NCBI RefSeq assembly: GCF_022846255.1
Contig: NZ_AP025682.1
Reading direction: 5' to 3' (one strand)
From: Escherichia coli
GTDB taxonomy: Bacteria > Pseudomonadota > Gammaproteobacteria > Enterobacterales > Enterobacteriaceae
Length of the DNA: 64,000 bases
In this document: piece by piece, positions 18,324-58,823 of the stretch
How the letters are laid out: each line of letters begins with the position of its first letter
How positions within the stretch are numbered: the stretch's first letter is position 1
The notes under the pieces: generated by a model
Told to the model about the DNA's origin: nothing
Seen by the model: only the letters and a program-made list of their open reading frames with translations
The model's database searches: none
Position numbers and translations under genes: made by a program

Positions 18324-19211
18324 ATGGATGCAAAACAAACGCGGCAAGGCGTATTACTCGCTCTTGCCGCTTATTTTATTTGGGGTATTGCGCCAGCGTA
18401 CTTCAAGCTGATTTACTACGTGCCCGCCGATGAGATCCTGACGCATCGCGTGATCTGGTCGTTTTTCTTTATGGTGGTGCTGATGAGCATCTGCCGCCAG
18501 TGGTCCTATTTAAAAACGCTGATTCAGACGCCACAGAAAATTTTTATGCTGGCAGTCTCTGCCGTGCTGATTGGTGGCAACTGGCTACTGTTTATCTGGG
18601 CGGTGAACAATCACCATATGCTGGAAGCGAGTCTTGGTTACTTTATTAACCCGCTGGTGAACATTGTGCTGGGGATGATTTTCCTCGGCGAGCGATTCCG
18701 CCGGATGCAATGGCTGGCGGTGATTCTGGCGATATGTGGAGTGCTGGTTCAGTTGTGGACTTTTGGTTCACTGCCGATCATCGCGCTGGGGCTGGCGTTT
18801 AGTTTTGCTTTCTATGGCCTGGTGCGCAAGAAGATTGCTGTTGAAGCGCAAACCGGCATGTTAATCGAAACTATGTGGTTGCTGCCCGTGGCGGCGATTT
18901 ACCTGTTTGCTATTGCCGACAGCTCAACCAGTCATATGGGGCAAAACCCGATGTCGCTGAATTTACTGCTGATCGCCGCCGGTATTGTCACTACCGTACC
19001 GCTGTTGTGTTTTACTGCGGCTGCGACACGCCTGCGTCTCTCAACGTTAGGCTTTTTTCAGTACATTGGCCCGACGCTGATGTTCCTGCTGGCTGTGACG
19101 TTTTATGGTGAAAAACCGGGTGCCGATAAGATGGTGACCTTCGCCTTTATTTGGGTGGCGCTGGCAATTTTTGTGATGGATGCGATTTATACGCAGCGTA
19201 GAAAAAGTTAA
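18324..19211 (+). CDS. rarD: EamA-family transporter RarD
   Basis: 295-aa 10-TM DMT protein matching RarD. Confidence 0.9.
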   Translation: MDAKQTRQGVLLALAAYFIWGIAPAYFKLIYYVPADEILTHRVIWSFFFMVVLMSICRQWSYLKTLIQTPQKIFMLAVSAVLIGGNWLLFIWAVNNHHMLEASLGYFINPLVNIVLGMIFLGERFRRMQWLAVILAICGVLVQLWTFGSLPIIALGLAFSFAFYGLVRKKIAVEAQTGMLIETMWLLPVAAIYLFAIADSSTSHMGQNPMSLNLLLIAAGIVTTVPLLCFTAAATRLRLSTLGFFQYIGPTLMFLLAVTFYGEKPGADKMVTFAFIWVALAIFVMDAIYTQRRKS

Positions 19212-19257
19212 GCATTAACATGGGTAGGCCGTTTAAAGAGCCTACCCACTGACTTAT

Positions 19258-19575
19258 TTATCTTTTTTTGAAAAAAATTAAGATAAGAAAAAGAACAATA
19301 TTTGTTACAGGAAATACCCCCAAAGCTCCCCAGTACTTACTCCATCCTAGAGACATCGTATATCTACCAAGGATTTGACAAAATCCAAAACTTAACCCTA
19401 TACCTATACTTCTTAAATTTAATGTCGTAGTCAGGCTTAAAATAAATAGAACAAGGATGGTAATAGCCCACCACAATAACCACGCCTTAACAAAATCAGA
19501 TTTTTTGCTGTAAGGTTCTTTACCCAAGAACAACTGCCAAAAGTTACTATTTTCCATATAGAATACATTCACCAA
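19258..19575 (-). CDS. small hypothetical inner membrane protein in AT-rich islet (position of yigG in the K-12 layout)
   Basis: 105-aa ORF with two hydrophobic segments; about 30% GC; start codon uncertain. Confidence 0.4.
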   Translation of the reverse strand: MVNVFYMENSNFWQLFLGKEPYSKKSDFVKAWLLWWAITILVLFILSLTTTLNLRSIGIGLSFGFCQILGRYTMSLGWSKYWGALGVFPVTNIVLFLILIFFKKR

Positions 19576-19772
19576 AAATATTATTCATAGAAACAAATAT
19601 TATTTAATTATATTTAATTAAATATAGTTCCCCTCAATAAAAACTTATACACTCTAAATTACTACTGTATAGTTATCAATACAAAGGCTGTCATATTGCA
19701 TGGATATAACAAGCTATATGTTCTAAATAATGTATATACACTTAAACCAATCATATACAAAACAATATAAAA

Positions 19773-20159
19773 ATGTTTAAATCATCTATTAGAAATATAT
19801 TATACCCATCCAGGCTTAAGCATTTATCACGTTTGCAGTTTATAATCTACACATTAACATCATGGACAATATTAATAACTTTGAATGATATCAACCTGGC
19901 TTTGAGTTTCATTCTGGTCATCACTAATACGTATGTGAATATCAATATCGGAGCTAAAAGAATAAGAGATACTGGATGTAAGGCAATCTATTTTGTATTG
20001 ATTTCATTGGGTTTGACACTTTTTTCTATTATCTCGGCAGTAATTGAAGGGGTGAGATGTGATTCATTAAGCGTCCAACTCAACGTAGCATGGATATTAT
20101 TCACAACAATTATGTTATCTGCGATTCCCTCGGCTAAAATGTCGCTGTCAGCACACTAA
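19773..20159 (+). CDS. small hypothetical inner membrane protein in AT-rich islet (position of yigF in the K-12 layout)
   Basis: 128-aa ORF, hydrophobic segments; about 30% GC. Confidence 0.4.
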   Translation: MFKSSIRNILYPSRLKHLSRLQFIIYTLTSWTILITLNDINLALSFILVITNTYVNINIGAKRIRDTGCKAIYFVLISLGLTLFSIISAVIEGVRCDSLSVQLNVAWILFTTIMLSAIPSAKMSLSAH

Positions 20160-20183
20160 CTTACTCACAGCGACATCGTAAAG

Positions 20184-21134
20184 TTACAACCAGTTCTTCC
20201 GCTTAAAGTAGAGATACGGTGCCAGGCCCGCGAGGATCATAAAGATAATCGCGCCTGGGTAGCCGAAGCTCCACTTCAGTTCTGGCATAAACTCAAAGTT
20301 CATCCCGTAGCTGGAAGCAACCAGCGTCGGCGGCAGGAACACGACGGATACCACCGAGAAGATTTTGATGATGCGGTTCTGCTCGATATTGATAAAGCCC
20401 ATCGCCGCCTGCATCAGGAAGTTCACCTTCTGGAACAGGGATTCGTTATGCGGCAGCAGGGATTCGATATCTCGCAGGATTTCACGCGCCTGCTCCAGTT
20501 GCCCACCCGGTAAACGCGCCTTGCGTACCAGGAAGTTGAGCGCACGCTGGGTATCCATCAGACACAGGCGAACTTTCCAGCCGATATCTTCCAGTTCCGC
20601 CAGCGTAGAGAGCGCTTCGTCATACTCATCGCCCTGATGCCCTTCCATAATCACCCGGCTCAACTGCTCCAGGTCGCTATAGATATTTTCAATTTCATCT
20701 GCCAGCTGTTCGATTTTGGTTTCGAACAGATCCAACAGCAGCTCGTAGGCGTTACCGTCTACCATCGACTGGCTACGGGCACGCATACGATACAGACGAA
20801 AAGCGGGCAGTTCACGCTCACGCAAAGTAAACAGACGACCATCACGGATGGTAAATGCCACAGTGGAGTTACCGGCGTGATCTTCCGCATCTTCAAAGAA
20901 GAAGAAGGAGTGAATATGCAGGCCGTCATCGTCTTCAAAGAAACGTGCCGATGCTTCGATGTCTTCCAGTTCCGGGCGGGTTGCCAGGCTCTGGCCAAGT
21001 TCAGATTGTACGCGCAGTCGCTCGTCGTCGTCCGGTTCGACAAGATCAATCCATACTGCATTTACAAGGGGTTGTGACTCTTCGACTTCCAGCCGGGTCA
21101 GTCGGTTATTTTCCAGTTGAAATGCGCTCAGCAT
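20184..21134 (-). CDS. corA: magnesium/cobalt transport protein CorA
   Basis: [17 protein letters not shown]... 316 aa with the GMN motif ([11 protein letters not shown]); start at the internal ATG of ORF 20184..21149. Confidence 0.97.
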
Positions 21135-38654: not shown

Positions 38655-38670
38655 GCCTTTCTGATATATA

Positions 38671-38876
38671 AAAAAACGCCTGCTCTTATTACGGAGCAGG
38701 CGTTAAAACAGGTCTGTATGACAACAAGTGGGTGCTTCACTCAACGTTGTGTCCATGGTGTCTGATGAGGCATAAGCGACATCTGTCAGTGGACGATAAG
38801 CACCGTAAACGGCTCTGCGTCATTCCGGAGTTTATGAGGCACTAAGGCGAACATAAGAGATGGAATGAGCATCTAC
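38671..38876 (-). ncRNA. glmZ: GlmZ small regulatory RNA (SraJ/RyiA)
   Basis: minus-strand sequence GTAGATGCTCATTCCATCTCTTATG ... AACGCCTGCTCCGTAATAAGAGCAGGCGTTTTTT matches GlmZ as I recall it; terminator hairpin plus U-run at the 3' end; lies in the hemY-aslA intergenic region. Confidence 0.8.
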
Positions 38877-39300
38877 TCGTTTATTATGCCACAGAGAACC
38901 GGGAAATAACATCCCTTAACACTTGTTATGAGATAATTCTGTAATCCTCTTTGCTTCCTGAGTAATAACTTCCTGAGTGAATATTTCTCCTGCGCACAAT
39001 TCTACACATATATATAATGAATAATAAAAGTCATTCAATTAATAACATATATATTAATTGCCGTTAAAACTAAAAACAGCATCAATAATCAACGCGATAT
39101 AACATCACCGCCTTACATATCACCTGCGCCAGAGGTAGGATTGCAAACGCTCTCCTGATTTTCCAATTCATTTTCTGGATAAATAAATAATTTATTTTTA
39201 TCACTATTATTTATGCAATCATCCTGTCAGGGAGAGGGATCTCAATTATCAATGCTTAATTACGTCATCATTTTGACGACATGAAACCGGAGCATTTTGC

Positions 39301-40956
39301 ATGGAATTTTCGTTTTCACCCAAACTTCTTGTTGTTGCTGTCGCCGCAGCTCTTCCTCTCATAGCCAGCGCAGCAGATACCCCGTCAACCGCCACCGCAC
39401 GCAAAGGCTTTGCCGGATACGATCACCCAAACCAGTATCTGGTTAAACCGGCGACCACTATTGCCGACAACATGATGCCGGTGATGCAGCATCCTGCACA
39501 AGACAAAGAAACCCAGCAGAAACTGGCGGAACTTGAGAAAAAAACCGGTAAGAAACCGAACGTGGTTGTTTTCTTGCTGGATGATGTGGGCTGGATGGAC
39601 GTTGGCTTTAACGGCGGCGGCGTGGCGGTGGGTAACCCTACACCAGATATCGACGCCGTTGCCAGCCAGGGGCTGATTTTAACTTCGGCGTATTCTCAAC
39701 CGAGTTCTTCCCCAACCCGCGCCACGATTCTCACCGGACAATACTCCATCCACCACGGCATTCTGATGCCGCCAATGTACGGGCAACCGGGCGGTCTGCA
39801 AGGGTTAACCACGCTGCCGCAGTTGCTGCACGATCAGGGCTACGTCACTCAGGCCATCGGGAAATGGCATATGGGGGAAAACAAAGAGTCGCAGCCGCAG
39901 AACGTTGGCTTTGATGATTTCCGCGGCTTTAACTCGGTATCCGATATGTATACCGAATGGCGTGATGTTCACGTCAACCCGGAAGTCGCCCTGAGCCCGG
40001 ATCGTTCTGAATACATCCAAAAACTGCCGTTCAGCAAAGATGACGTTCATGCCGTGCGCGGCGGTGAACAGGAAGCCATTGCCGACATTACGCCGAAATA
40101 TATGGAAGACCTGGATCAACGCTGGATGGAATATGGCGTTAAGTTCCTCGACAAGATGGCGAAGAGTGATAAGCCTTTCTTCCTCTATTACGGCACTCGC
40201 GGCTGTCACTTCGATAACTACCCAAATGCGAAATATGCGGGTAGCTCTCCGGCGCGCACCTCTTACGGCGACTGCATGGTGGAGATGAACGATATCTTCG
40301 CCAATCTGTATAAAGCACTGGAGAAAAACGGTCAGCTTGATAACACGCTGATTGTGTTCACCTCTGATAACGGTCCGGAAGCCGAAGTTCCGCCGCACGG
40401 TCGCACGCCGTTCCGCGGTGCGAAAGGTTCTACATGGGAAGGCGGCGTTCGTGTGCCAACCTTCGTTTACTGGAAAGGCATGATCCAACCGCGTAAATCT
40501 GACGGCATTGTCGATCTGGCGGATCTCTTCCCTACGGCACTGGATCTGGCGGGGCACCCTGGGGCGAAAGTAGCGAATTTAGTACCGAAAACCACCTTTA
40601 TCGATGGTGTGGACCAGACATCTTTCTTCCTGGGAACAAATGGTCAGTCTAACCGTAAGGCCGAGCACTACTTCCTCAACGGCAAACTTTCTGCTGTGCG
40701 TATGGATGAGTTCAAGTATCACGTCCTGATCCAGCAACCGTACGCGTATACCCAGAGCGGGTATCAGGGTGGATTCACCGGCACAGTAATGCAAACGGCG
40801 GGATCGTCGGTGTTTAACCTGTACACCGATCCGCAGGAAAGCGACTCCATCGGCGTGCGCCATATCCCAATGGGTGTACCGCTACAGACCGAAATGCACG
40901 CGTATATGGAGATCCTGAAAAAATATCCACCACGCGCGCAGATTAAATCTGATTAA
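39301..40956 (+). CDS. aslA: arylsulfatase
   Basis: 551-aa product with signal peptide and sulfatase motif region ([13 protein letters not shown]). Confidence 0.9.
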
Positions 40957-56220: not shown

Positions 56221-57324
56221 TTATTTGGTTAAATTGGGGCTGCCACCACGATTTCTACGCAGTCTGCGTTTTACGCGCTTAATAAAGCGAGCAACTTTCC
56301 AGGCACGCTTAATGCAATATCCATAGAGGAAGAATGCTAGTAAAAAGAGCACCAGCATGACCCACTCCGGGACAAAATGAGAATATTCTGCCAGCACCCC
56401 AATGGAGGCGAGCAGAGCTGCGGCAAGGGTAATCAGCACAAACGCCTGGCGGGAAGTAAACCCGGCACGCATGATCAAATGGTGAATATGCTGACGGTCA
56501 GGAGAGAATGGGCTCATGCCTTTACGCAGGCGACGGTACATAATCGCCACCATATCCATTAGTGGAATGGCGATTATCCACAAAGCGGTAACCGGGCTGA
56601 TGGGATGAGTTTTGCCCTGGGTCGTTTCGAGCAGGATCCAGATAACGGTAAAACCAATCAGCGTACTGCCCGCATCCCCCATAAAGACTTTGTAGCGGCG
56701 ACCCAGGATACCAAGGTTAAGCATGATGTATGGCAGGATGGCGGCGATCATCGCAAAGCACCAGATTGCGAGACTGGTTTGCCCGTCGAACCACAAAATC
56801 ATACCGATTGCTGCAAACGAGACGCAGGACAACCCGCCCAGCAAGCCATCAATGCCATCAACCATGTTGAACGCATTAATGGCCGCCCAGACGGCAAATA
56901 GCGTCAGGAAGTAACCAAACGGTCCGAGCACCATCTCCCAGGAGCCAAAGATATAACCCAGGCTACTGAGATAAAGTTTGCCGAACACCATCATAACAAT
57001 GCCAACAGCGGCCTGTATGGTGGCACGGATTTTTACGCTGATATCAAAACGGTCATCCAGCGCGCCAATGAAAACAAGCACACCAGCACAAGCGAGATAG
57101 AGAGATGCATGCGGAATATAGTAATCAACAATTCCGAACGTGAAGCAAATCCCTGCGTAAACCGAAATCCCCCCAACGAGAGGTATCAATCCCTGGTGAC
57201 GTTTGCGGAAGTTTGGTTTATCCACTAAACCGACTTTTTTTGCCACCTTACGGGCAAAAAACAGAAACAGTGTCGTGAATAAAAAAATACTGATGAGATC
57301 AGTACTCACTGTCAGTAAATTCAC
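56221..57324 (-). CDS. wecA: UDP-GlcNAc:undecaprenyl-phosphate GlcNAc-1-phosphate transferase
   Basis: 367-aa polytopic MraY/WecA-family protein; first gene of the wec cluster. Confidence 0.95.
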   Translation of the reverse strand: MNLLTVSTDLISIFLFTTLFLFFARKVAKKVGLVDKPNFRKRHQGLIPLVGGISVYAGICFTFGIVDYYIPHASLYLACAGVLVFIGALDDRFDISVKIRATIQAAVGIVMMVFGKLYLSSLGYIFGSWEMVLGPFGYFLTLFAVWAAINAFNMVDGIDGLLGGLSCVSFAAIGMILWFDGQTSLAIWCFAMIAAILPYIMLNLGILGRRYKVFMGDAGSTLIGFTVIWILLETTQGKTHPISPVTALWIIAIPLMDMVAIMYRRLRKGMSPFSPDRQHIHHLIMRAGFTSRQAFVLITLAAALLASIGVLAEYSHFVPEWVMLVLFLLAFFLYGYCIKRAWKVARFIKRVKRRLRRNRGGSPNLTK

Positions 57325-57520
57325 AATGCATGCTCTCAGAGAAAATTATTAGCAGAAGTATAACCACGAAGACCTTTATTCAGAAGGGAAAGTCCGTTCC
57401 GAACCCACCAGCCCTGTGCAAAAATTAACCATTTGATATGCAAATTGCATAACACACCAGCAAATTCCAGGAATTTTCCTAGCATCGCCAGCGCGGCATT
57501 AAGATTACAGATATAAAAGC

Positions 57521-57549
57521 AAAACGCCACGTAAACACGTGGCGTTTTT
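57521..57549 (-). terminator. rho-independent terminator downstream of rho
   Basis: perfect palindrome AAAACGCCACGT aaac ACGTGGCGTTTT. Confidence 0.6.
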
Positions 57550-57563
57550 GGCATAAGACAAAT

Positions 57564-58823
57564 TTATGAGCGTTTCATCATTTCGAAGAAATCGTCATTG
57601 GTCTTGGTCATTGCCAGTTTATTAATGAGGAATTCCATTGCATCGATTTCGCCCATCGGGTGAATGATTTTGCGCAGGATCCACATTTTCTGCAGTTCTT
57701 CCTGAGTCGTGAGCAGCTCTTCTTTACGGGTACCGGAACGGTTGTAGTCGATAGCCGGGAAGACGCGTTTTTCAGCGATCTTACGAGAGAGGTGCAGTTC
57801 CATGTTGCCTGTACCTTTAAACTCTTCGTAGATAACTTCGTCCATTTTAGAACCGGTATCGATAAGCGCCGTCGCGATAATGGTCAGGCTGCCGCCCTCT
57901 TCCACGTTACGCGCCGCACCAAAGAAGCGTTTCGGACGATGCAGAGCATTGGCATCCACACCACCGGTCAACACTTTACCTGACGCCGGAACAACGGTGT
58001 TGTAAGCGCGCGCCAGACGAGTGATGGAGTCGAGCAGAATGATAACGTCTTTCTTGTGCTCAACCAGGCGTTTCGCCTTCTCGATCACCATTTCCGCAAC
58101 CTGAACGTGGCGAGATGCGGGTTCGTCAAAGGTAGAAGCAACAACTTCACCTTTTACCAGACGCTGCATCTCGGTTACTTCTTCCGGACGTTCGTCGATC
58201 AGCAGAACCATCAGCACACAATCCGGGTGGTTGTAAGCAATGCTCTGAGCAATGTTCTGCAGCAGCATGGTTTTACCGGCTTTCGGCGGTGCCACAATCA
58301 GACCACGCTGACCACGACCGATAGGTGATGCCAAGTCCAGTACGCGAGCGGTTAAATCTTCAGTAGAACCGTTACCACGTTCCATGCGCAGACGAGAGTT
58401 TGCGTGCAGCGGGGTTAAGTTCTCAAAGAGGATTTTGTTGCGGGCGTTTTCAGGTTTGTCGAAGTTAACTTCGTTAACTTTCAGCAGCGCAAAATAGCGT
58501 TCACCTTCTTTCGGCGGGCGAATCTTACCAGAGATGGTATCACCAGTGCGGAGGTTGAAACGGCGGATTTGGCTAGGGGAAACGTAGATGTCATCAGGAC
58601 CGGCGAGGTAGGAGCTGTCTGCGGAACGGAGGAAACCAAATCCATCCTGCAATATCTCCAGTACGCCATCACCAAAGATATCTTCGCCACTCTTTGCGTG
58701 CTGCTTCAGGATGGCAAAAATAATGTCCTGCTTACGCATACGAGCCAGGTTTTCCAGCCCCATATTTTCGCCGAGAGTGATCAGCTCAGAAACCGGCGTA
58801 TTCTTTAATTCGGTAAGATTCAT
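57564..58823 (-). CDS. rho: transcription termination factor Rho
   Basis: [44 protein letters not shown]... 419 aa from internal ATG of ORF 57564..58895. Confidence 0.98.

Follow-up and report, generated by a model that had tools for sequence, protein, structure and literature searches.

The glmZ-aslA spacer of Escherichia coli as a probable two-part divergent control region

Introduction

In Yersinia, Salmonella and the majority of Enterobacterales (groups I and II), glmY and glmZ depend on sigma-54, GlrR (QseF) and IHF. Their promoters carry the element TGGCAC-N5-TTGCA, in which GG lies at about -25 and GC at about -13; farther upstream, at about -250 to -120, an enhancer contains two to three GlrR sites of the form TGTC-N10-GACA, and IHF sites lie between this enhancer and the promoter. 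E. coli K-12 glmZ belongs to group III, for which a single constitutive sigma-70 promoter has been described (Göpel et al. 2011, NAR 39:1294, PMC3045617). In that study, GlrR failed to bind a fragment extending from -424 to +32, i.e., the entire spacer upstream of glmZ, in electrophoretic mobility shift assays, and neither deletion of glrR or rpoN nor overexpression of glrR affected a glmZ'-lacZ fusion (PMC3045617). Full activity was retained after 5' truncation to -40 and abolished at -20, and mutation of either the -35 or the -10 hexamer abolished expression (PMC3045617).

The gene on the other side of this spacer, aslA, appears among the invasion factors listed for meningitis-causing E. coli K1, in which aslA mRNA is measurable and indirectly RpoE dependent. 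The spacer itself is routinely used by K-12 engineers as a neutral integration site. Among H-NS-repressed genes, proU and bgl have regulatory elements both upstream and downstream, and trapping of RNA polymerase is known at hdeAB and rrnB P1.

Here, the glmZ-aslA spacer is described from a stretch of E. coli DNA of 64,000 nucleotides (contig NZ_AP025682.1), referred to below as the window. The spacer is an ordinary, already characterised E. coli intergenic control region, and the additions made here are small: its two-module anatomy, the insertion history of aslAB and a conserved candidate for the aslA promoter. Experimental evidence for the spacer comes entirely from K-12 and none of it from the window strain. 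An earlier sequence-only reading of the window had considered the promoter architecture worth defining; for K-12, this had already been done in 2011 (PMC3045617).

Results and discussion

Identity and conservation of the spacer

The interval 38877-39300, which the sequence-only reading had picked out as AT-rich and without a plausible ORF, coincides exactly with the glmZ-aslA intergenic spacer as delimited by Rfam and ORF boundaries (Table 1); it has a GC content of 33.7% and no conserved ORF. The aslA ATG at 39301 is preceded by a Shine-Dalgarno (SD) sequence, GGAG, 8 nt upstream. A stretch of 801 bp around the spacer is 100% identical to NZ_CP031215, and of 5426 complete E. coli genomes, 5415 contain it. 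In K-12 MG1655, the region is likewise laid out as aslA (b3801), a 424-bp spacer, glmZ (b4456) and hemY. The two spacers are collinear, equal in length and alignable without gaps, and they differ at 24 of 424 bases (94.3% identical, 5.7% differing). Substitutions cluster at 38987-39030 and 39103-39144, and the gap-free alignment contains no difference within the glmZ gene.

Table 1. Features of the glmZ-aslA region, in window coordinates
Feature	Position	Strand	Basis or remarks
glmZ (GlmZ/SraJ sRNA gene)	38670..38876	-	+1 at 38876; Rfam RF00083, 218.4 bits, model 1-214 (full length)
glmZ-aslA intergenic spacer, 424 bp	38877..39300	.	glmZ 5' end to aslA ATG
glmZ promoter module, to about -70	38877..38946	-	sole part of the spacer resembling glmZ upstream regions of other genera
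glmZ -10 CATAAT (38888..38883), preceded by TGG; extended -10 TG (38891..38890)	38883..38891	-	sequence; invariant in six Escherichia
glmZ -35 ATGTTA, 3/6 consensus matches, 18 bp to -10	38907..38912	-	matches published ATGTTA-N15-tggCATAAT
aslA-associated AT-rich upstream region, ~354 bp	38947..39300	+	GC content in 8 aslA-adjacent loci; drop in conservation
Tandem 15-bp direct repeat, CTTCCTGAGTAATAA / CTTCCTGAGTGAATA	38954..38983	.	in window and K-12 only; within the least conserved stretch
AT core 1, 22-23% GC	38977..39101	.	ATATATATAAT, AATTAATAA and ATATATATTAATT tracts; inside K-12 H-NS ChIP-chip regions, aerobic and anaerobic
Conserved distal block AAACTAAAAACAGCATCAATAATCAACGCGATATAA, candidate regulator site	39066..39101	+	conserved in Escherichia, recognisable in Pseudocitrobacter
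Candidate aslA promoter, CTTACA (39112-39117)-N18-TAGGAT (39136-39141)	39112..39141	+	conserved hexamers; pattern in 10 spacers
AT core 2, 28-29% GC	39152..39276	.	23-nt A/T run at 39179-39201; inside K-12 H-NS regions
Most conserved aslA-proximal block, with inverted repeat and SD GGAG (39289-39292)	39227..39300	+	80-90% invariant in Escherichia
aslA (arylsulfatase, 551 aa)	39301..40956	+	ORF; RefSeq annotation of identical sequence

The spacer is far poorer in GC than the whole window (52.0%), and only 1.07% of all 424-bp segments of the window are equally low. The frequency of TpA steps is 0.099 in the spacer versus 0.043 in the window (2.3-fold), and nine runs of at least 7 nt consisting only of A and T amount to 21 per kb versus 4 per kb (5-fold). 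The AT richness is concentrated in two AT cores, which flank an island of 43% GC. The tandem 15-bp repeat (38954-38983) is probably a recent duplication. Two other low-GC stretches occur in the window. The corA-rarD tract (19025-20290) is more AT-rich still, with a minimum of 25% GC over 424 bp, and contains a hypothetical gene; at least 80% of its length is common to only 1431 of 5426 E. coli genomes, identifying it as a variable accessory segment. The third stretch, at 57197-57700 with 39% GC, corresponds to the region between rho and wecA, which is conserved.

Structural variants of the locus were encountered in other strains. In strain PSS-16 (NZ_AP027713.1; locus L124, 6343-7828), an IS1A element lies at about -50 of glmZ, with the breakpoint near window position 38926; the associated deletion has removed the remaining spacer and the 5' part of aslA, and glmZ and its core promoter are retained. 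Some E. coli strains (e.g., NZ_CP128916.1; locus L123, 5414-6004) carry an insert of ~640 bp, with a CDS for a 196-aa hypothetical protein, between the hemY stop codon and the glmZ terminator. Its junction corresponds to window position 38668, and similarity resumes exactly at the glmZ 3' end.

The glmZ promoter

On the minus strand, positions 38912..38883 read ATGTTA-TTTCCCGGTTCTCTG-TGG-CATAAT, with the -10 hexamer at -12 to -7, ending 6 nt before +1. The sequence-only reading had placed the glmZ promoter in the spacer and taken CATAAT as its -10 hexamer, which is borne out, both hexamers being identical to those of the mutationally validated K-12 promoter (PMC3045617). Across six Escherichia sequences, the hexamers are invariant at 12 of 12 positions, compared with 10 of 18 positions in the sequence between them. 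The window and K-12 agree from +1 to -22 and throughout the -35 hexamer, and the promoter module is at least 95% identical in 5418 of the 5426 E. coli genomes. The window locus therefore shares with the K-12 group III promoter its motif, its position and the absence of sigma-54/GlrR elements and differs at -23 only, where it has G and K-12 has A.

Because constitutive sigma-70 transcription was demonstrated in K-12 and the promoter elements are identical in the window, the first part of the spacer (38877 to about 38946) is read as a constitutive, extended -10 sigma-70 promoter, which would fire on the minus strand from 38876 and would need nothing beyond -40.

Other promoter predictions on either strand were rejected. 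Scans of the single sequence for sigma-70 promoters were uninformative: the validated glmZ promoter ranked only sixth on its strand and was missed by a generic scanner. The in silico glmZ promoter of Shimada et al., TTGAGA-17-GATGAT (39245..39218), lacks conservation and, relative to the true start, sits 342 bp too far upstream. Two plus-strand candidates, TTATGC-17-TAACAT and ATGCCA-15-TAACAT, are conserved only through their overlap with the glmZ hexamers of the opposite strand.

Cross-genus comparison and history of the spacer

Species-representative genomes were scanned with a DNA pattern for the 19-nt GlmZ 5' end, which yielded 120 loci, and the analysis was confined to the 107 Enterobacterales loci for which 300 nt or more of upstream sequence was available. 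Matches on two MAG contigs, of Bacteroidetes and Caldilineaceae, had no GlmZ-like promoter context and were excluded as chance occurrences. At 82 of the 107 loci, TGGCAC-N5-TGCA is present at -27 to -12 together with at least two GlrR sites at about -246, -214 and -151; seven loci are intermediate, and 18 have neither the sigma-54 element nor GlrR sites. These 18 comprise all four Escherichia clusters, Kluyvera, Pseudocitrobacter, Klebsiella/Raoultella, some Citrobacter, Pluralibacter and Superficieibacter. The survey, in which the test that is negative for the window comes out plainly positive at most other loci, reproduces the published three-group scheme of glmZ promoters on more genera. 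Four loci of the Citrobacter freundii complex, which keep TGGCAT-N5-TGCA and have no recognisable GlrR sites, are intermediate in the loss of sigma-54 control.

The window shares the glmZ gene with groups I and II, and the -10 regions (TGTGCAATAAT against TGTGGCATAAT) and the -35 regions, (A/G)TGCAA in those groups and ATGTTA in the window, are apparently homologous. Unlike those groups, the window has no GG in register at -24 and neither the TGTC-N10-GACA sites nor the IHF sites, and beyond about -70, it has aslA-associated DNA in place of the enhancer region.

Among the surveyed loci, aslA adjoins glmZ divergently only in Escherichia (four clusters), Kluyvera (three loci) and Pseudocitrobacter. 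The distance from the 3' end of the proM tRNA gene to the GlmZ +1 is 306 bp in Salmonella, 329 bp in Citrobacter R56 and 297 bp in Enterobacter, all of the sigma-54 type, and 146-270 bp in sigma-54-less genera without aslA; with aslAB lying in between, it is 3552 bp in the window, 3617 bp in E. albertii and 3477 bp in Kluyvera. In Kluyvera cryocrescens (locus L057, 3932-4183), the tRNA-Pro(TGG) gene is duplicated in the tRNA cluster beside aslB.

Upstream of glmZ, the similarity between Escherichia and other genera fades at about -70 in alignments. Conservation within Escherichia falls sharply at this same point, where 20-bp bins are 60-85% invariant at 38867-38946 and 0-45% invariant at 38947-39026. 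The GC content of the 424 nt upstream of glmZ is 30-36% at the eight aslA-adjacent loci, versus 46-54% at the other sigma-54-less loci and a mean of 45% at loci of the sigma-54 type. The length of the whole spacer (402-436 bp) and its GC content (30-36%) are kept in the three aslA-adjacent genera, the sequences of which are barely alignable. Because similarity and conservation end near -70 and low GC is restricted to aslA-adjacent loci, the spacer is, judged by sequence comparison, an ancestral glmZ promoter module of ~70 bp joined to an aslA-associated AT-rich module of ~354 bp, and among the compared loci, the AT-rich tract goes together with aslA.

These distances are consistent with a history in which aslA-aslB and an AT-rich leader came to lie between proM and glmZ, where they would have replaced an enhancer of ~300 bp containing three GlrR sites and the -24 element. 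Such a replacement would suffice to explain how GlrR control was lost in Escherichia, where glmZ would be unregulated because the aslAB block took the place of the enhancer. Klebsiella and some Citrobacter have lost the GlrR enhancer without gaining aslA; because Klebsiella did so by shortening, insertion of aslAB is not the sole route to enhancer loss.

A candidate promoter for aslA

When 33 candidates were ranked by their worst score in six Escherichia sequences, CTTACA-N18-TAGGAT was the top candidate on the aslA strand. Its hexamers are invariant at 12 of 12 positions in the six sequences, versus 7 of 18 for the sequence between them, the same signature as at the validated glmZ promoter. 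Each hexamer matches the consensus at four of six positions (in TAGGAT including A2 and T6), the spacing is 18 bp, and the position weight matrix score is 6.4, compared with 6.9 for the validated glmZ promoter. The pattern [CT]TTACA-N18-TA[AG]GAT, which was defined post hoc from the aligned Escherichia sequences and later relaxed at two positions so as to admit Kluyvera, occurs exactly once per aslA-glmZ spacer in all 10 spacers, from three genera with unrelated spacer sequences, and in 8 of 20,000 shuffles of the window spacer. Both hexamers of Pseudocitrobacter are exactly those of Escherichia, and Kluyvera has TTTACA and TAAGAT. In the 10 spacers, the -10 hexamer of the pattern ends 101-159 nt before the aslA ATG.

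CTTACA-N18-TAGGAT is, on these sequence criteria, the best candidate for the aslA promoter, a strong lead rather than proof. Transcription is predicted to start at about 39147-39149, giving a predicted leader of ~152-154 nt that would contain AT core 2, which would fall 3' of the candidate start. No aslA 5' end was found in the transcription start site data searched, and Kim 2012 has no aslA entry. The in silico aslA promoter of Shimada et al., TTAACA-18-TGTAAT (38916-38945), was rejected, as its -10 hexamer is not conserved. Upstream of the candidate, the conserved distal block contains an IHF-like site with one mismatch at 39087-39099.

H-NS binding and proposed silencing of aslA

The U00096.2 and U00096.3 versions of the MG1655 sequence are offset by 1977 bp, and in U00096.2, the spacer occupies 3984031-3984454. 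The H-NS ChIP-chip coordinates for MG1655 (Myers et al. 2013, PMC3688515, Table S3) are read as U00096.2, which is supported because this offset separates them from U00096.3 and because position 3984609 is labelled "glmZ/hemY" in the same paper. Under aerobic conditions, a continuous H-NS region (3983614-3984895) covers the entire spacer plus glmZ and 417 bp of aslA. Under anaerobic conditions, two regions (3983553-3984164 and 3984258-3985271) leave a gap of 93 bp, which corresponds to window positions 39074-39166, i.e., the GC-richer island with the candidate aslA promoter; the aerobic region being continuous, this gap may be noise. In genomic SELEX with K-12, the aslA<>glmZ spacer binds RpoD holoenzyme and carries an H-NS site (Shimada et al., PMC3946193). 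The H-NS binding that the sequence-only reading had suggested from composition is, then, supported for the collinear K-12 spacer both by genomic SELEX (PMC3946193) and by ChIP-chip (PMC3688515), and by analogy, H-NS would also occupy the spacer in the window strain. The H-NS nucleation motif TCGATAAATT has one site with two mismatches in the spacer, TGGATAAATA (39176-39185), at a density (2.4 per kb versus 1.0 per kb in the window) not above chance.

The ChIP study also reports an FNR peak "5' of glmZ/hemY" at U00096.2 position 3984609, which corresponds to window position ~38722, inside glmZ, with no change in expression (PMC3688515).

The second part of the spacer (about 38947 to 39300) is the aslA upstream region, in which two AT tracts, occupied by H-NS in K-12, flank a GC-richer island with a weak, strongly conserved sigma-70-like element, CTTACA-N18-TAGGAT. 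We infer that this element is the aslA promoter; H-NS on both sides would hold aslA low ("latent"), and the glmZ promoter, situated where the tract ends, would escape H-NS silencing. This arrangement resembles silencing of the proU/bgl type in that two AT-rich tracts surround a weak promoter-like element and both sides are occupied by H-NS in K-12 ChIP-chip. Unlike in proU and bgl, the aslA promoter is a candidate, H-NS repression of aslA is proposed by inference, and the divergent glmZ promoter at the edge is constitutively active.

Taken together, the spacer is probably a divergent control region in two parts, in which a constitutive sigma-70 glmZ promoter is combined with an H-NS-bound upstream region that carries a candidate promoter, would keep aslA latent and would have replaced the enhancer. 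A more specific proposal is tentative, and we would not expect it to hold in every part: that aslA is transcribed from CTTACA-N18-TAGGAT (unreported in the sources searched), notched between bridging H-NS tracts and thereby kept latent, and that the arrival of aslAB, bringing a self-silencing leader, displaced the GlrR enhancer and made GlmZ constitutive in Escherichia.

Alternative explanations

The AT-rich tract could instead be the neutral junction of the aslAB insertion, drifted under AT bias, with H-NS bound passively and aslA kept low by a weak promoter or by its need for some activator. Most of the tract is indeed poorly conserved, with bins that are 0-50% invariant across 38947-39066; it is unalignable between genera, and it has been deleted or interrupted without a reported phenotype. 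Sigma-70-like matches are enriched 3- to 4-fold in the spacer, as expected of any AT-rich DNA. No hns-dependent aslA expression was found in the hns/stpA data sets searched; aslA is missing from the Higashi 2016 list, which includes aslB and hemY, and Srinivasan 2015 gives for aslA only a point mutation in evolved lines. Pure drift, however, is difficult to reconcile with the retention of spacer length and low GC in three genera despite sequence turnover, with H-NS occupancy of the K-12 spacer in vivo under two conditions as well as in vitro and with the conserved blocks and promoter-like element inside the tract. On balance, the neutral explanation is considered unlikely, and the two-part control region is preferred.

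An unannotated gene or RNA within the spacer (an sRNA, a small protein or an aslA leader whose structure gates translation) is more improbable still. Transcription from the candidate promoter would yield a leader of ~150 nt, and just before the SD sequence there is an inverted repeat, GTCATCA-TTT-TGACGAC (39264-39280), in whose 7-bp stem E. albertii has one compensatory change and strain E69 has G-U pairs. Outside this stem, AAUGCUU (39250-39256) could pair with GAGCAUU (39290-39296), which would cover part of the SD sequence. However, the outer stem is invariant and thus uninformative, the window strain has an A-C mismatch within the hairpin, and the fold z-scores (-0.78 and -0.97) are not significant. 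A structured leader and a long-range pairing of 39140-39155 with 39231-39246 were rejected on these z-scores and for want of convincing covariation, and the hairpin at 39264-39280 is an unproven lead from sequence. No RNA family in Rfam matches within the spacer at an E value of ≤1. The longest spacer ORFs encode 40 aa, and all ORFs of at least 20 aa are interrupted by stops in other Escherichia species; small ORFs were rejected as genes, including a 23-aa upstream ORF (39213-39284) that is reduced to ATG-TAA in K-12. Least probable of all, with next to no likelihood, is that some or all glmZ transcription comes from a sigma-54 promoter activated by GlrR/QseF at sites in the spacer, in the manner of Yersinia or Salmonella, a possibility that the sequence-only reading had raised. 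This architecture is the prevalent one among the surveyed Enterobacterales loci, and the G at -23 creates a GG near -24 in the window. That GG (-24/-23), though, is shifted by one base from the register set by the GC at -13/-12, the remainder of the -24 element is absent, and the region from -27 to -12 contains no -24/-12 element even when four mismatches are allowed. The best sigma-54-like string in the spacer, TGACAGGATGATTGCA (39229..39214), is located 340 bp upstream of glmZ and does not contain the essential GG. No TGTC-N10-GACA GlrR site with two or fewer mismatches was found in 38768-39451, and the spacer has no exact IHF site (WATCAANNNNTTR) and four one-mismatch matches, as expected for AT-rich DNA. 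In K-12, experiments rule out both GlrR binding to -424..+32 and dependence on rpoN or glrR (PMC3045617). Sigma-54/GlrR control of glmZ at the window locus is refuted.

Implications

The questions raised about glmZ and H-NS had already been answered for K-12, and the window sequence agrees with those answers, i.e., no sigma-54/GlrR control and binding of H-NS. The candidate promoter and the flanking H-NS tracts bear on how aslA, a cryptic sulfatase gene, is switched on. In addition, the insertion history of aslAB could explain in simple structural terms why GlmZ is no longer under GlrR control in Escherichia and, if true, would mean that GlmZ was turned from an envelope-stress-regulated into a constitutive sRNA in the Escherichia lineage.
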